64,000 bases of DNA, from the IMG/VR virus record IMGVR_UViG_3300025418_000011, one strand, 5' to 3'. The first letter of the stretch is position 1, and every line of letters begins with the position of its first letter. Both the position numbers and the translations under genes were made by a program. Positions 8,244 to 51,563 of the stretch are shown here, piece by piece. The DNA comes from a virus. Below the pieces are notes generated by a model. It worked only from the letters and a program-made list of their open reading frames with translations, was not told the origin of the DNA and did no database searches.

Positions 8244-10661
8244 ATGGATCTTAATACTCTTTTTTCAGATTTTAAACGCCAGCTACATACTGTACACAAC
8301 ACTAAAGGAAGCGAGATGTCGCTATTTACTGCCGTTGTAGTTACATCCACTGCAGCAACTTACACGGTGTCTGTTGTGCGCGAAAATAACATAACCCCAT
8401 TTTCTGATGGAGGAAACACAATTCAAGGTATAGCCATATCTTCTCACCTAGCTTCTTTCTTTGGTTTTAAAGATTGCGGTATACCACAACCAGGCAGTCG
8501 TGTGTTGTGTGCAGGCAGCGGATCTAATACTTGCTATATTATTGGAGTTATTCCACAAAATAATTTAAGCTCTGGATTTATACCTGGTAGGGTATCCGCA
8601 GGAGTTGGTTGCGCTAGTAATGATGATGCCAACAGAATAGGACACAAAGATAAACACCCCGTTATTCCTAATAATAGAAGACCTGCCGATGTTGTGGATG
8701 GTGAGTATGTTATTTCTAACGAATTTGGGGTTTTGTTGGGTTTATTTCAAACTCTAGCCACATTAAAAGCATCAGAGTTAGCTCAGGTACAATGTCACTT
8801 ATTAGATGACTTGGTAAGAATAGTTAGCCACAATTTCCAGCATTATACCGCCCTAGGAGAATATAATATTTGGCATGATGGAAAATCATTAATGGCAGAA
8901 TTCGGAGCAACCCATATACCAGCAGAATCATTGGGCAGGCCTTCTGTTTTATCCGACGCAGCAGGAGCTCCGGTTTTTTCAGAAACTTCTTCGAATACTC
9001 CAGACGATAAAGAAGATTTTTACAAGATTACAGAAAATGAAAGAATCAAGGCCATCGAGCGATTTAAGGTCTTTTTAGGAAGACTTGGTGACTTTTTACA
9101 TATATTTTTAGTAAAACCCGACGATGACGAAGTTAGATGTTTAGACCCAGAAAAAACACCACAAAAACCAGATACTGGATTATTTGATTTACATCTAGGT
9201 ACAGACGGAGGAGTACATATAAGAAGCTTAAAAGAGGTATTCATAGAAAAAACAAATTGGATACGTGTACCCCTGAGATATAGCGCCCCCGAAGACCAAA
9301 AAGGGGATGATGCCACAGGCATAGATTACGATAAAAAAGAAACTTTTGACTGGGATACTTCTCATATATACAAAGAAAATCCTTTGTCTTATTTTTTACA
9401 GATAAGAGACTACTTAGCTTATGTTAACGAAAAAACCTCTTATCAAAATTTCAAAAAGCACAAAAAAGACTTTTATGTTAATGACGATATTGCTAAAGAG
9501 AAAAGTTTATCAGAGATAACTAATGTAGACGAATCTACTGAATTAGACTTAAACGAATATAAATTACGGACTGCAGGCATATATTTAATGCCTAATGGGG
9601 GAATAACCATAAGAGATGCCTGGAATAGCGCCATTGTTTTAGAGGGAGGAAATGTTTATATTCAACCAGCCAAAGATTTAGTTTTACAGCCCTTGCGTAA
9701 TTTCATAGCAAAAGTAGGAGGATGGACAAGTATAGCAGGAAAAGAGGATATAGATATTTCCTCTACGGATAAAGGCTTTAGATTAAAAACAGAAAAATCA
9801 CAGTATTTTTATAGCGATAAGAGCGGAATAGTGGTTGAATCTAATTCTTCAACTCCTACCACTGGATCGCCAGACCCGGCAACAAAGGCAATCACTGATA
9901 TTGGAGGAATTGTACTTAAATCTAAGTTAGGTATTTATAATTATGCCGAAACAGAAATTTTAAATTACTCCAAAGATAGGATTCTTTTTCAGGCCGTAAA
10001 AGATTTCTTGATCCAGGGAGACGAATTGATTTCTATAAAATCTAAAAATAGTCAGATTATGCTGCAAGGGAAAACCATTGTGGCTGACGGTAAGGACTCC
10101 GCCTTATTTCTATCTTCAGCAGGCCTCGCGGCGTTTGCTGGAGATAGTGGTTCTGTTTTTGGTAAAAAGGACGAATATATTGGTGTTACTTATGATAAGA
10201 AGAGTTTCGTTGTGGATATTTTAAAGGGAGCATTAGATTTAAAAACAGTTAGTACACAAACTAATAAAGACTTTGATCAAATAAAGGAACCGATAAAATA
10301 TTCCATCTTTCAAGAAAATAAAAAGTTTACTGATCTTAAATTTAGATTTTTAGACTCAAAAGATTATTATGGTCTTCAAAAAGAGATAGATGCTATTCCT
10401 ACCACGATGGCGCAACAAGATGCAAAGTTGACGGAACTATATAATTTGACACCCTGGAAAGAAAAAGATGTAAATGATACAAAACCGTTTCCTGGAAAAG
10501 ATGATTATGATACTTTTTATCTTTCCGCCGAAGTATTTAAAAATCTAAAGAAGTCCCAATCCGGAGAAAAAGATAGTTATAGCTCAGCAACAGCGAAAAA
10601 AACCCCAGCTACGTTAAAATTATCTTCACTCGACGAATATAAAATACAATCCTATCAATAA
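8244..10661 (+). CDS. Baseplate central spike (gpV/gp5/VgrG-like)
   Basis: OB-fold-like N-terminus (YTVSV...IPQPGSRVLC...YIIGVI) and beta-helix-like repeats (GGITIRDAWNSAIVLEGGNVYIQPAKDL...). Confidence 0.65.
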   Translation: MDLNTLFSDFKRQLHTVHNTKGSEMSLFTAVVVTSTAATYTVSVVRENNITPFSDGGNTIQGIAISSHLASFFGFKDCGIPQPGSRVLCAGSGSNTCYIIGVIPQNNLSSGFIPGRVSAGVGCASNDDANRIGHKDKHPVIPNNRRPADVVDGEYVISNEFGVLLGLFQTLATLKASELAQVQCHLLDDLVRIVSHNFQHYTALGEYNIWHDGKSLMAEFGATHIPAESLGRPSVLSDAAGAPVFSETSSNTPDDKEDFYKITENERIKAIERFKVFLGRLGDFLHIFLVKPDDDEVRCLDPEKTPQKPDTGLFDLHLGTDGGVHIRSLKEVFIEKTNWIRVPLRYSAPEDQKGDDATGIDYDKKETFDWDTSHIYKENPLSYFLQIRDYLAYVNEKTSYQNFKKHKKDFYVNDDIAKEKSLSEITNVDESTELDLNEYKLRTAGIYLMPNGGITIRDAWNSAIVLEGGNVYIQPAKDLVLQPLRNFIAKVGGWTSIAGKEDIDISSTDKGFRLKTEKSQYFYSDKSGIVVESNSSTPTTGSPDPATKAITDIGGIVLKSKLGIYNYAETEILNYSKDRILFQAVKDFLIQGDELISIKSKNSQIMLQGKTIVADGKDSALFLSSAGLAAFAGDSGSVFGKKDEYIGVTYDKKSFVVDILKGALDLKTVSTQTNKDFDQIKEPIKYSIFQENKKFTDLKFRFLDSKDYYGLQKEIDAIPTTMAQQDAKLTELYNLTPWKEKDVNDTKPFPGKDDYDTFYLSAEVFKNLKKSQSGEKDSYSSATAKKTPATLKLSSLDEYKIQSYQ

Positions 10662-39602: not shown

Positions 39603-39857
39603 ATGCTTGTTGCAAAATTCTTAGAAAAATTAGATTGGGTTTCAGACTCTAGGTTGTATAGTTTGTCGTCCCCCTTAAAAGGACACAATTACATAATTGT
39701 GTCCTCCTCAGAAGGACAGATTCCAGACACAGCAATCTATGGCGCAGATAAGTACGGCAATCCTCTAGACTTTGAGGACCTGCCAGGAAGTTACACAGGA
39801 ACAAGTCATATGGAGGCGTTAAGAAGAGCGGGATATATACTTTTTATAAATGAATAA
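39603..39857 (+). CDS. Small conserved-looking phage protein
   Basis: 84 aa; IYGADKYG...EDLPGS...HMEALRRAGY. Confidence 0.6.
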   Translation: MLVAKFLEKLDWVSDSRLYSLSSPLKGHNYIIVSSSEGQIPDTAIYGADKYGNPLDFEDLPGSYTGTSHMEALRRAGYILFINE

Positions 39858-40404: not shown

Positions 40405-40480
40405 CCCCCCCATAATATAGCTTAACTTTTCAGGTATAATAAATTGATAACAAGATTTGTTAGGCTATATTTTTTAGTTT

Positions 40481-41013
40481 ATAGATTCGGATCTGTGTGT
40501 CCGCTAATTAGCTAAAGGTCCACGGCTGATATTGTGTGTACAATGGCGCTCTGCTCGGCCGAGCACCGCATAGAGACACATAGCAAACGGGCACACAGAT
40601 CCATCTATTTTTGTAATGCTACTTGCGATTAGTCTGGACTATAACCAGAGTCGTAAACCGTCTCAAGTCGGGAAGAGGTGGAATCATGGCCGCCTGAAAA
40701 GCAGAGAGCAAAAAATGGCGCAGCAAGGAATAAACTGACGAGTTTATTGAAAGGGTTTCCAACTTATTGGTGGAAACTGGTGTGGCACAACCCCCACACT
40801 AAATGACAATCTCACGGATACTGCAACCACCGTGAACAAATCATTCGCCTCACCACGAGGTTTGCAGACATCGTGGTAGGAACGCGCCTAAACCTTTTAA
40901 AATAATTCTGTGAGTAGAGTATGGGTAATTCCCATAACACGCTCTGTAAAGATAAACAACCTAATGCTGGGTGTTATTTTTACAGATCACGGTGATGATC
41001 ACACAGAGTTATT
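40481..41013 (+). ncRNA. Candidate large structured ncRNA A (about 530 nt, family unknown)
   Basis: No ORF of 60 aa or more; about 10 stems, three long ones containing G-U pairs that only work on the + strand. Confidence 0.6.
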
Positions 41014-41053: not shown

Positions 41054-41827
41054 GTGAAAAACGTACGCAGGATAGATTGGTCAGCACGTAAAGAAAAACG
41101 AGACAACGACATCTACCTAAACAAAGAGCTAAAGAAGCTGTTGCGTTATAGAGAAGATATCAACATACTCTCTCTGCCTGGTGAAAAATGGCTATGGGAG
41201 CGGCAGTTAATTCAAAATTTCCCTGAAAATAAGTTCAATATTGTTGGTGTTGAATCTGATCCTTATGTGAATGAATCTTCAAGAAATTTTCTAAAGCTCA
41301 ATCACAAGAATAAAAGAAACCAGATTGATCTACTAGACCAAAAAACATCATGGGAAGATGTAGTCACCAGGAAATTTAATTCCAGCTTGTTTGATAGCTC
41401 AACAGCTGAATTTGATATAATCTACGGTGATTTCATGGGTACCTTTAACAGAAATATAATAGAGTATATCTCACACATGCTAGAGGATAAAAAAATGATA
41501 AAGCCCTTGGGTAATATTATTTTTACATTCCTGCTTGGACGTGGATTGAGGGATATCAGAGAAGAAACCCTAGAGATAGGCAGAGCATCAAAATATTCAG
41601 ATTTACTTTATTTTGATGATGACATGCTGTGGAACAGATACAGCAGTAATACCAAATCTGATGAAGTTCATCCTTATGCTATCGGCATTATGGAAACTAT
41701 CTTACAGCTTGGTAAGAAATTCGGAAAAGTTCTACTCCCCTCAAAACCACATATATATTACAGTCCGGGAAGAGATGAAAACCATCTTGTTCCAGAGGGC
41801 AGCTTTTGCTTTACACTGATAAAGTAA
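41054..41827 (+). CDS. Class I SAM-dependent methyltransferase-like protein
   Basis: INILSLPG (motif I-like), IVGVESD (motif II), FDIIYGDFMG (motif IV); GTG start. Confidence 0.6.
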   Translation: MKNVRRIDWSARKEKRDNDIYLNKELKKLLRYREDINILSLPGEKWLWERQLIQNFPENKFNIVGVESDPYVNESSRNFLKLNHKNKRNQIDLLDQKTSWEDVVTRKFNSSLFDSSTAEFDIIYGDFMGTFNRNIIEYISHMLEDKKMIKPLGNIIFTFLLGRGLRDIREETLEIGRASKYSDLLYFDDDMLWNRYSSNTKSDEVHPYAIGIMETILQLGKKFGKVLLPSKPHIYYSPGRDENHLVPEGSFCFTLIK

Positions 41828-41850: not shown

Positions 41851-42285
41851 GGGGGCGTAATTGGAAATCGACTCCAGGAGTTGATATCAGCCTACATGCA
41901 GAGGATCTCAGTTGGCCTCTATAATCATCTGGGAAAAAAATAAAAGCAAACTCTAACGAGATGCTTGCTCCTAGCCTCGCTGAGGCGGATGCCATTCTTG
42001 CAAAGTATGGCTACGCTGACAGCGAGCTTCTCGCTGCCTAACCGCAGCGGCTTGAAGCCGCTAGTAGTAAAACGCTCTCTGGACGCCCGATGCCGGAGAG
42101 ATACAAAAGGGTACCTCAATTATCTTGTGAGGGTATAATTTAGATACGACTCAATTCGCGTTAAGTTGAAGATCCATCTGTATCCGCTCAGCGTACTGGT
42201 ACAGATGAAATAGGCTGAGCTAAGCATGTAAACGGTTGTTAGATATTTCTGGAACACACGGGTTCGAATCCCGTCGCCTCCACCA
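41851..42285 (+). ncRNA. ssrA: tmRNA (one-piece, 435 nt)
   Basis: GGGGGCG/CGCCTCC-ACCA acceptor with G3-U; T-arm CGGG TTCGAAT CCCG; helix 2 (TCCAGGA/TTCTGGA, CATGC/GCATG); pk1 (GAGG/CCTC plus TCTCAG/CTGGGA); tag ending LLAA-stop. Confidence 0.96.
41946..42041 (+). other. tmRNA tag reading frame ANSNEMLAPSLAEADAILAKYGYADSELLAA*
   Basis: GCA resume codon after pk1 and ATAAAA; 31 sense codons then TAA. Confidence 0.88.
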
Positions 42286-42288
42286 ATC

Positions 42289-42867
42289 TACTGATGAAAA
42301 TCAGTACTCCTCCTGGGGATAATCGTATCCCTTGCTCATAGTCTAACGGTTACAAAGTGACTATCTGTGACTACTCAGACAAACGAGACCGCGGTTCCCA
42401 GTACGTGTAATCCCTCTATCATTAACAGGCATGTTGGATAGAAACGCAATTAGTCATTGCGGGGGAAAGAAGCTAACCGCGGGTTGAGGAAAAATTTCCC
42501 CCCAACAATAGATATAAAAACCACTGTGAGAAGCAGGGCATTGCGCTTTGTGTATATGTGGAAATCCCGAAGATAACATATTAATCCTCTCAGGGGCTAC
42601 AGGTGATGCTCTCTGAGGAAAAAGGAAGTTAACCATCTGGGAGCTCTATTGTCTGGGGACTTTTGTTTTGGTAATGATCTTTTATCGGTTAGATCATGTG
42701 TGTTGGAACCGTCTGTGGCCGCGAGATGTATATCTTTCCCGCCCAAAAAAATAACAGATTGAGCATACAACAGAGTCCAAATCTCAAAACATGCTCGGTA
42801 ATAATAAACCAACAACCAATATTTTCCTGGTTTGCCACACATACACAGGAGCACTGGTCCGGCAGTG
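42289..42867 (+). ncRNA. Candidate large structured ncRNA B (about 580 nt, family unknown)
   Basis: Starts 3 nt after the tmRNA CCA; more than 10 hairpins, including GAAA and GGCA GNRA loops on +; no + strand ORF. Confidence 0.55.
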
Positions 42868-42929
42868 ACTAACACAATCCGGAAATTTTTTATTTGATTA
42901 TTGCCCTCTATGCGGATAATTATTTATTT

Positions 42930-43012
42930 GAGCCCAGGACAACCAAAAACCCTCTGGTATTAGGCGGGAAATCTGATGGAAAGCAGAAATCTATAAGCCC
43001 TGTCCTGGGCTC
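42930..43012. repeat. Perfect 12-bp inverted repeat enclosing 59 nt
   Basis: GAGCCCAGGACA (42930) / TGTCCTGGGCTC (43001), followed by a T-rich tract. Confidence 0.75.
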
Positions 43013-43040
43013 TTATTTTTTAACTATTCAAAAAACCCAT

Positions 43041-44881: not shown

Positions 44882-44968
44882 TTTTGTTATGTCGCTCATA
44901 ACTGAAGGGCATAAGCAGGAGTATGGCCAACGAGTATAAAAATAAACCCTGCACAACTTATCACACAA

Positions 44969-45409
44969 ATGAAAACATACACAGAAACTAAAGATAAAAA
45001 AAAGTTTGATTGGTTCAGCTTTCTAGCAGAACGTATCAAAGAGCAGCCCAAAGGCGTTACATCCGTTGATAATATGCCAGACAAAGATATTATCAACACG
45101 AGAAAGAAATTTAAAAAAGAAATAAAGATGGCAGGTGATTGGGTTACCTGCGCCTGCGGAAACCAATGCAGCATTCTTGATAGAGATTTTGATGGTGAGC
45201 CCGTGGATGACAAACTTGCTGAGTTAGGTTCAGATTTTTATTATTATGTGAACGACCTGGATTGGAAAGAGGCAAAAACGACCCTCAAAGAAATCGAAAA
45301 GCTTTCAGCCAAACTAATCCAGGAAAAAATCCAAACCAGTAAGAAAATTCTTACGTCTTTAGGATATAAAGTAATTGAACCTGAGTTAAAAAAGGTTAAC
45401 AATAAGTAA
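44969..45409 (+). CDS. Hypothetical phage protein
   Basis: 146 aa; AGDWVTCACG...DGEPVDDKLAELG. Confidence 0.65.
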   Translation: MKTYTETKDKKKFDWFSFLAERIKEQPKGVTSVDNMPDKDIINTRKKFKKEIKMAGDWVTCACGNQCSILDRDFDGEPVDDKLAELGSDFYYYVNDLDWKEAKTTLKEIEKLSAKLIQEKIQTSKKILTSLGYKVIEPELKKVNNK

Positions 45410-48785: not shown

Positions 48786-48828
48786 ACCTCCCACGCCTCT
48801 CAACGATGCGCACCAAGGGAGGTTTTTT
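48786..48828 (+). terminator. Intrinsic terminator with long loop
   Basis: ACCTCCC/GGGAGGT followed by a T-tract. Confidence 0.6.
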
Positions 48829-50426: not shown

Positions 50427-51563
50427 ATGATCAGAGACAACACACACCTGTTCGAGGCACCAGCTGCCTTAGGACAAATCCGAATAGAGTATTTGTATAA
50501 CCTAAAGTATGGAACAATTCCATCTAAGTTGAACATTAATGAATCTCTATATGCAGACAAAACAATCAAATATGTATCCAAGCATTTTGATAGCTTCTCG
50601 ATAGAATATACTTCTAGAGGCGACTCATTATCTCGTGGTACTTATTGGATAGGTAAAGTCGGCACAACTTTCGAGGGAGTAGTATTAGAAACTAGCGACT
50701 CAGAGCATGGTGAGTATCCGTCTATATCAGGAGAAGAGTTTGCTATCAGAAGAAGAGGCGGTAAAAAGAAATCTGAAGAACCAGAGCTTTGCACAATATC
50801 GGCTGTAGGTCCTGATGAAAAAGTATTAAAGAAACTTTGGGAAACCTTAAAAGAGTTTAAGTATGTATCCAAGTCAAAGATATATCTATTAGCTACACAG
50901 TATGGTGAGGTAACTTTAAAGCCCTTGGATGTGCCTGAATCTACTTCTGATTTAGCTCTAAACTACGGCTCTAAATTTCCACCTCTGCACGACGAGATAA
51001 TAAATTCTCTAAACAATAAGAGCTCTGGCTTGTACTTGTTCTACGGAGAACCAGGCACAGGAAAGTCCTCATATATTAAGCATTTGTTATCTGTGATCTC
51101 AGAGAGAAAGATTGTTTATATCCCTATCAATCTTATAGACCATTTGATTTCACCAGACTTTATTCCGTTGCTCATGAACAATAGGAATATGATCTTGGTG
51201 ATAGAAGACGCAGAAAAGGCTCTGGTATCTCGTGAAGAGAATACCGGTAACGCATCCATTGTGTCTGCTATTCTGAATCTTACAGACAGCTTTATCAGCA
51301 GCACATTGAATGTAACTATCATAGCCACATTCAATACAAAGAAAGAAAATCTTGATAAGGCCCTCCTTAGAAAAGGTAGGTTAAAGTTCAGTCATGAGTT
51401 CGATAAGTTAAGTGTGGAAGATGCTCAGAAGTTAATAGACTCTCTAAAGATAGACCATAAAGTAGAATCGCCTATGACTATCGCAGAAATTTATTATCTC
51501 ACGGAGGATAACCACCTTAAAGAAGAAGAGCCCAAAAAAGTTATTGGGTTTGGAGGAGTTTAA
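50427..51563 (+). CDS. AAA+ ATPase (BCS1-like)
   Basis: Walker A YGEPGTGKS, Walker B LVIEDAE, IATFN, LDKALLRKGRL arginine finger. Confidence 0.9.
   Translation: MIRDNTHLFEAPAALGQIRIEYLYNLKYGTIPSKLNINESLYADKTIKYVSKHFDSFSIEYTSRGDSLSRGTYWIGKVGTTFEGVVLETSDSEHGEYPSISGEEFAIRRRGGKKKSEEPELCTISAVGPDEKVLKKLWETLKEFKYVSKSKIYLLATQYGEVTLKPLDVPESTSDLALNYGSKFPPLHDEIINSLNNKSSGLYLFYGEPGTGKSSYIKHLLSVISERKIVYIPINLIDHLISPDFIPLLMNNRNMILVIEDAEKALVSREENTGNASIVSAILNLTDSFISSTLNVTIIATFNTKKENLDKALLRKGRLKFSHEFDKLSVEDAQKLIDSLKIDHKVESPMTIAEIYYLTEDNHLKEEEPKKVIGFGGV

Follow-up and report, generated by a model that had tools for sequence, protein, structure and literature searches.

Positions 40481-41013 of the window (the whole stretch of viral DNA analysed, 64,000 nucleotides) hold three small structured RNAs, called modules A, C and D, and a twister ribozyme between them, all placed behind a conserved putative promoter. 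Twister and pistol ribozymes are established classes, and ribozymes between phage genes are also known; what is new here is the three folds and a clean exchange of one ribozyme class for another in a single slot of a modular non-coding cassette. The best explanation, and a reasonably likely one, is that the cassette forms the head of a non-coding RNA operon that is cut by its ribozyme to give separate trans-acting RNAs.

The virus record containing 40481-41013 is linear, 131,625 bases long, and ~67% complete. The stretch opens an accessory island between tail-region genes and a conserved 427-aa gene, with the island also containing a tmRNA, tRNAs, and small genes. The features of the cassette and its downstream neighbours are as follows.

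40405-40440, + strand: putative promoter, consisting of a C-run, 23 nt, and GGTATAAT (repeated motif, kept in relatives)
40481-40608, + strand: module A, a three-way junction RNA (z -5.35, compensatory changes)
40609-40713, + strand: twister ribozyme, type P1 with optional P3 and P5, predicted cut U40614/A40615
40717-40888, + strand: module C, a multi-way junction closed by GGCGC/GCGCC (z -5.16)
40901-41013, + strand: module D, a three-way junction RNA (z -5.36, compensatory changes)
41054-41827, + strand: 257-aa ORF with a class I SAM-dependent methyltransferase fold (AlphaFold, Foldseek)
41851-42285, + strand: tmRNA (Rfam 98.9 bits, ARAGORN)

The original prediction described a structured RNA free of ORFs and read from the + strand, and this much was upheld. 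The stretch has no ORF of at least 70 aa, and the long stems that had been drawn are present, with arms at 40489-40503/40588-40602 and 40901-40912/41002-41013. The + strand folds at -186.8 kcal/mol with a z of -8.10 (0/100 shuffles as low), compared with -164 kcal/mol and a z of -3.83 for the opposite strand, so that the + strand is favoured, as had been claimed. Each of the three long stems does contain a G-U pair on the + strand, and L004, a close variant, has two further one-sided changes to G-U in stems. A structured non-coding + strand RNA under selection for structure is supported. The TATAAT proposed upstream was confirmed at 40435-40440. The motif CCCCC-N23-GGTATAAT occurs 3 times in the genome, with the same spacing and on one strand, and every sister locus has it ahead of the cassette; GGTATAAT is kept at the same spot in the distant relatives L276 and L281, which lack the modules. 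From sequence, we infer that 40405-40440 acts as a promoter, with transcription starting near 40447.

The idea of a single ornate RNA of ~530 nt is not supported; the stretch instead consists of four independently folding modules that are lost, gained, or swapped singly in sister phages. Folded one at a time (40481-40608 for A, 40609-40714, 40717-40888 for C, and 40901-41013 for D), they sum to -184.9 kcal/mol against -186.8 kcal/mol for the whole stretch, and ~4 of ~170 expected pairs cross a border within the four-module stretch; because the energies sum near the whole and few pairs cross, the modules fold independently. A single large RNA would accord with the whole-region z of -8.1 and with a position adjoining tmRNA and tRNAs, like that of ROOL and GOLLD, but it is hardly credible given that its ends are not joined by a long-range helix, modules come and go singly, a self-cleaving ribozyme is predicted inside it, and GOLLD, ROOL, OLE, MISL, and HEARO are all unmatched (gathering or E up to 10). 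ROOL (RF03087) and GOLLD (RF02032) resemble the cassette in being phage-encoded, adjoining tRNA genes, and having kissing loops (PMC12286853), yet each of those is one RNA that spans several hundred nt and has long-range helices, whereas the cassette consists of four modules (105-172 nt) with no pairing among them rather than one continuous long-range fold. The kissing loops of ROOL and GOLLD build homo-oligomeric cages; palindromic loop cores are seen in the cassette. A fallback division into two adjacent RNAs was half right: a separate RNA at 40481-40608 was borne out, but a second RNA of ~400 nt was not.

The expectation of novelty also stands only in part. A comparison of 40481-41013 with Rfam, as the original prediction had proposed, gave no match at gathering score, and at gathering and at E up to 10 only the tmRNA, tRNAs, abiF, and a weak twister match were returned; that match marks one module as a member of a known ribozyme class. 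The short arms listed earlier are present, but several of them (TCTGG/CCAGA and the GGTGG/CCGCC region) are parts of this unrecognised twister. By its sequence features, 40609-40713 is a twister-class ribozyme. The class is defined by essential stems P1, P2, and P4, optional stems P3 and P5, pseudoknots T1 and T2, a U-A site, and a catalytic G (PMC5408937). In the window, P1 (40609-13/40709-13), P2 (40617-20/40700-03), and P4 (40658-60/40669-71) consist of standard pairs throughout, T1 joins CUC 40662-64 with GAG 40706-08 (3 bp), and T2 joins AC 40621-22 with GU 40667-68 (2 bp). Where the Rfam consensus has CCC/GGG for T1 and GC/GC for T2, both strands of each pseudoknot differ in the window, and both pseudoknots still pair. 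The conserved bases U40614, A40615, A40616, U40661, A40665, A40666, G40704, and A40705 are present.

Likeness to twister-P1 (RF03160) therefore covers P1, P2, P4, T1, T2, the U-A site and the next A, the L4 AA, and the catalytic G, but the window copy has both an extended P3 and P5, and its score of 29.6 bits (E 2.4e-4 in a 561-nt search) is below the gathering cut-off of 67.2. The low score is attributed to the P3 and P5 insertions in the alignment, both of which are optional in the class; the twister at 40609-40713 was not listed in a genome-wide search of Rfam families. A twister descriptor, with length ranges set after viewing the sequence and therefore a check rather than a blind test, has a single match in the 131-kb genome and 0 in 3000 shuffles of the region. 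Twister carriers belong to one lineage only, and the ribozyme thus has no covariation of its own. Cleavage at U40614/A40615 is very probable from these features, and the predicted cut lies 6 nt past the closing stem of A. The twister ends 3 nt before C.

Homologous loci in sister phages were recovered via neighbour proteins and DNA patterns, and their layouts are as follows.

Window and L004: A, twister, C, D, ORF, tmRNA
L001, L120, and L290: leader, A, X, pistol, C, D, ORF, tmRNA
L250: leader, X, pistol, C, D, ORF, tmRNA, with only a 3' arm remnant of A
L023: leader, A, pistol, C, Y, D, tmRNA
L249: leader, pistol, C, Y, D, tmRNA

Besides pistol, these loci contain elements that are absent from the window.

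L001:8079-8182 and L250:2776-2882: X, upstream of pistol in the L001/L250 clade
L023:2370-2430 and L249:7113-7176: Y, a long hairpin of 60 nt with a conserved bulged A, between C and D
L001:7830-7950: longer two-hairpin leader

Model searches of five whole records, which are fragments 33-85% complete with the slot sequenced through in each, found C and D as single copies in every record and A in three. C and D are kept in the same order in all five lineages, with extra modules gained or lost, and the two lineages that lack A (L249 and L250) keep pistol, C, and D. Between lineages, A, C, and D are 62-77% identical. Relatives at ~40% protein identity have none of the modules, only a short gap with tmRNA or little else, and the cassette is accordingly accessory.

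Pistol (RF02679, full model) scores 59.7-61.5 bits in L001, L023, L120, L249, and L250, above the gathering score of 34.5, and in four sister lineages it occupies the twister slot, abutting C. Pistol and C share one base, the last of the ribozyme and the first of the module, and the pistol cleavage junction is 4 nt before the closing helix of C. The pistol fold is unrelated to that of twister, and pistol cuts at its 3' end (G-A here) whereas twister cuts at its 5' end, yet from the same slot both are predicted to sever the same transcript just upstream of C. In a tree built from six flanking proteins (1601 columns) with four distant relatives as the root, the window falls within the pistol carriers with 100% support, and by parsimony twister would have replaced pistol and A would have been lost twice. 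The order of these events is not secure because the phages recombine, as seen in a nearby gene that is 98% identical between the window and L023. This gene (378 aa, AAA, 50427-51563) has neighbours of 54-86% identity in the same comparison, a sign of recent recombination. Since lineages without A still have a ribozyme, what stays constant is a predicted cut upstream of C, and selection seems to act on this cut rather than on the class of ribozyme that makes it.

Each of the three new folds has its own signature of conservation. Module A, found in the window, L001/L120/L290, and L023, combines a 14-bp closing stem, a 7-bp hairpin with a near-invariant 10-nt loop, AAAGGUCCAC, and a third arm with a variable tip; 99.4% of the cells in its alignment are paired, and 8 of 29 pairs show two-sided change. 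Besides two or three hairpins that vary, module C has two arms, one of which contains a conserved 7x7 internal loop; two-sided change is seen in 7 of 30 pairs, and RNAalifold recovers the fold (10/33 pairs). Module D, present in 5/5 records, has a 12-bp closing stem, a short arm, and a long arm with a conserved GCUGG at its tip; the junction strands AGUAGAG and AUGAUCA are invariant, and 15 of 34 pairs show two-sided change, with the long arm poorly aligned. The rows of these alignments represent ~4 independent lineages, and the counts of two-sided changes support the folds rather than serving as a significance test. The D model also detects X (E 1.4e-7 to 2e-3), making X a divergent second copy of the D fold. 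The junction of D can possibly be read as k-turn-like. Resemblances to T-box, cobalamin, lysine, THF, and ykkC elements, hatchet, the hairpin ribozyme, and 5S loop-E were judged by eye and discarded as short words only, in the wrong order.

The loops of the two C arms, CUGCAA (40821-26) and UUGCAG (40862-67), are invariant and complementary, a degree of complementarity that arises by chance in 1.5% of shuffled loops, and they likely form a kissing pair within C; because both loops are invariant, covariation is uninformative on this point. A pseudoknot proposed earlier between AGGTTT and AAACCT did not fare as well, being possible in the window sequence only with neither side kept in homologs, and the loop-loop pairing that is conserved is the one in C. 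C could also pair over 11 bp with the tmRNA tag region, but complementarity of this kind is expected by chance and was set aside.

These loops also bear on a different reading, in which C and D (~300 nt, 40717-41013) would be two domains of one ribozyme-released RNA that oligomerises via its loops, like ROOL/GOLLD or phi29 pRNA on a smaller scale. OLE, ROOL, and GOLLD use palindromic kissing loops to bridge chains (PMC12286853), the palindrome UGCA is in both C loops and UGAUCA is in the D junction, and C and D co-occur in order in all five lineages. This arrangement is nonetheless unlikely: no C-D pairs are predicted, the C loops pair perfectly inside one chain, the 60-nt hairpin Y is inserted between C and D in L023 and L249, and the D paralog X is free-standing elsewhere in the cassette.

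Compact RNAs with invariant junction and loop bases could instead be catalysts, and one or more of A, C, and D/X might belong to a new ribozyme class, and the island would then consist of self-processing elements in series. It was in just such contexts that twister sister, hatchet, and pistol were discovered (PMC6765202), and two cuts could also give ligatable ends. This is decidedly unlikely, as none of the Rfam ribozyme models (among them hammerhead, HDV-like, hatchet, twister sister, hairpin, and glmS) matches A, C, or D at E up to 10, many ribozyme-neighbouring motifs failed to cleave in tests (PMC6765202, PMC5737381), and a predicted ribozyme already adjoins A and C. A further reading, in which C or the duplicated D/X fold either represents a new class of ribozyme or inhibits a defence or translation factor of the host, is rather unlikely.

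Downstream of D, the 257-aa ORF has, in its AlphaFold model (pLDDT 94.6), a class I SAM-methyltransferase fold, and Foldseek returned methyltransferase matches at E ~5e-8 and TM ~0.4-0.5. The gene is movable: it is not between D and tmRNA in L023 or L249, where tmRNA is directly 3' of D; its homolog in L249 sits 3' of tmRNA, and the 38 kb examined around L023 yielded none. The neighbour downstream of D is the ORF in three lineages and tmRNA in two, so that D is not tied to one gene. As the ORF is not fixed after D, a role for D as its riboswitch is argued against. The wider proposal that C and D are cis elements, either riboswitch-like sensors or stabilising leaders for the methyltransferase or tmRNA, draws on the 40 nt from the end of D to the ORF, on a multi-way junction with kissing loops that recalls aptamer folds, and on the SAM-binding fold of the ORF. 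It is very unlikely, since C and D stay constant while the neighbour switches, D has no terminator-like site, and no riboswitch family matches; riboswitches typically keep a fixed place in the 5' leader of a related gene and have an expression platform, an arrangement that was not found.

The tmRNA is probably co-transcribed with the cassette. Its tag peptide (41946-42041) is unusually long at 31 aa and is kept in relatives, and the start of the tag resembles Verrucomicrobia tags, which we take to be a lead to the host only. In some sisters (L023:3010-3680; L001:about 9830-10500) the T-loop of the tmRNA is interrupted by an intron-like insert, whose opposite strand carries an ORF that is LAGLIDADG-like (L023 3161-3571); the tmRNAs of the window, L249, and L250 are uninterrupted. 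A conserved non-coding block lies 3' of the tmRNA at 42312-43029, whole in L001, L120, and L250 and partial in L023 and L249, with a folding z of only -2.3 and no Rfam match. Other well-folding stretches near the island are at 39650-39720 and 44950-45400 (z ~-4), one of them within a short ORF, and an abiF RNA (48787-48823, Rfam 50 bits, gathering 37) lies 3' of a conserved 350-aa gene in the window and also in L001 and L250. In an unrelated phage (L272:5010-6000), the same methyltransferase family is found inside a tRNA/tmRNA island. Ahead of the gene are several short, repeated hairpins along with further structured DNA that has no annotation, and genes of this family may favour RNA islands.

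Modules A, C, and D have so far turned up only in a single small clade of uncultured phages and do not constitute a new giant RNA class. They had no match among 4227 Rfam 15 families, nor in Rfam at E up to 10 when sequences from three lineages were used, and no members outside the clade were found in the scans made. With the region or a homolog as the query, blastn searches of isolate phages and plasmids returned only short chance or pistol-like pieces, and a locus search with two neighbour proteins returned no relatives. Module models run on loose-pattern loci gave nothing new among the matches listed, which were mostly chance, and a model match in L034 is a Gly-Pro coding repeat rather than a module. 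Exact patterns for A and D had no real match in bacterial genomes, a search that diverged members would escape. No match to the A, C, or D motifs was found in the literature, with a list of 10,000 viral candidate RNAs (PMC10690425) lying outside the comparison.

If the cassette is a ribozyme-cut operon head, as favoured here, the promoter near 40435 would drive one + strand transcript comprising a short leader, A, twister, C, D, the methyltransferase ORF, and tmRNA. Twister would cut itself during synthesis at U40614/A40615, freeing A with a cyclic-phosphate 3' end, so that C, D, and the downstream RNA, including tmRNA, would start with a 5'-hydroxyl. In sister phages pistol would make the same separation, 4 nt before the first helix of C. 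RNAs with 5'-hydroxyl ends resist 5'-monophosphate-dependent decay by RNase E, and the cut may have a stabilising effect of this kind. The analysis itself shows the structure, the modularity, the ribozyme identities by sequence, and the exchange in the slot, while transcription, cleavage, and the chemistry of the ends with its stabilising effect are inferred. The A/U-rich spacers between modules would probably be trimmed by host nucleases. Self-cleaving ribozymes leave 5'-hydroxyl and 2',3'-cyclic-phosphate ends, and ribozyme processing of polycistronic phage transcripts has been suggested before (PMC6765202). The released A, C, and D, as accessory cargo of the tRNA/tmRNA island, would work in trans, each as a compact folded RNA that binds host proteins, such as translation or anti-phage factors, or serves as a decoy for them. 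Action in trans is proposed because the modules are accessory, travel with tmRNA and tRNAs, and are independent of the downstream gene; the decoy role is the weakest step and is offered tentatively, at somewhat less than even chances.

Several known systems share parts of this organization. Orphan motifs described by Weinberg in 2017 (PMC5737381; reviewed in PMC6765202), which lie close to tRNA islands and ribozyme-associated genes of phages, are likewise compact covarying RNAs beside phage self-cleaving ribozymes, but the modules described here make up a cassette of swappable parts in which the ribozyme has a defined slot. Theta (HDV-like) ribozymes of gut phages (PMC10879173) also abut a non-coding RNA and are proposed to make its end; their class differs, however, and the partners here are new motifs rather than tRNAs, with the predicted end being the 5' end of C or the 3' end of A. 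Non-coding RNA arrays of UG27 reverse transcriptases (bioRxiv 10.64898/2026.09.22.753630) consist of ~150-nt structured phage units gained or lost singly, but those units share one fold and template cDNA, whereas the folds here differ, and no reverse transcriptase was seen beside the modules at the locus.

For most self-cleaving ribozymes of phages, the biological role is still an open question (PMC6765202). Two unrelated ribozyme classes that swap beside one conserved RNA offer a direct and cheap test of the processing hypothesis, and the slot exchange names the likely processing product, module C onward. The three new compact covarying folds, at 113-172 nt, are amenable to transcription, probing, and structure solution, and the window also illustrates that a twister with both optional stems escapes standard Rfam annotation. 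In the most far-reaching reading, the rather unlikely one in which C or D/X is a new ribozyme class or a host-factor inhibitor, the cassette would be an exchangeable tool kit of ribozyme-matured RNAs, an RNA counterpart of anti-defence gene islands.
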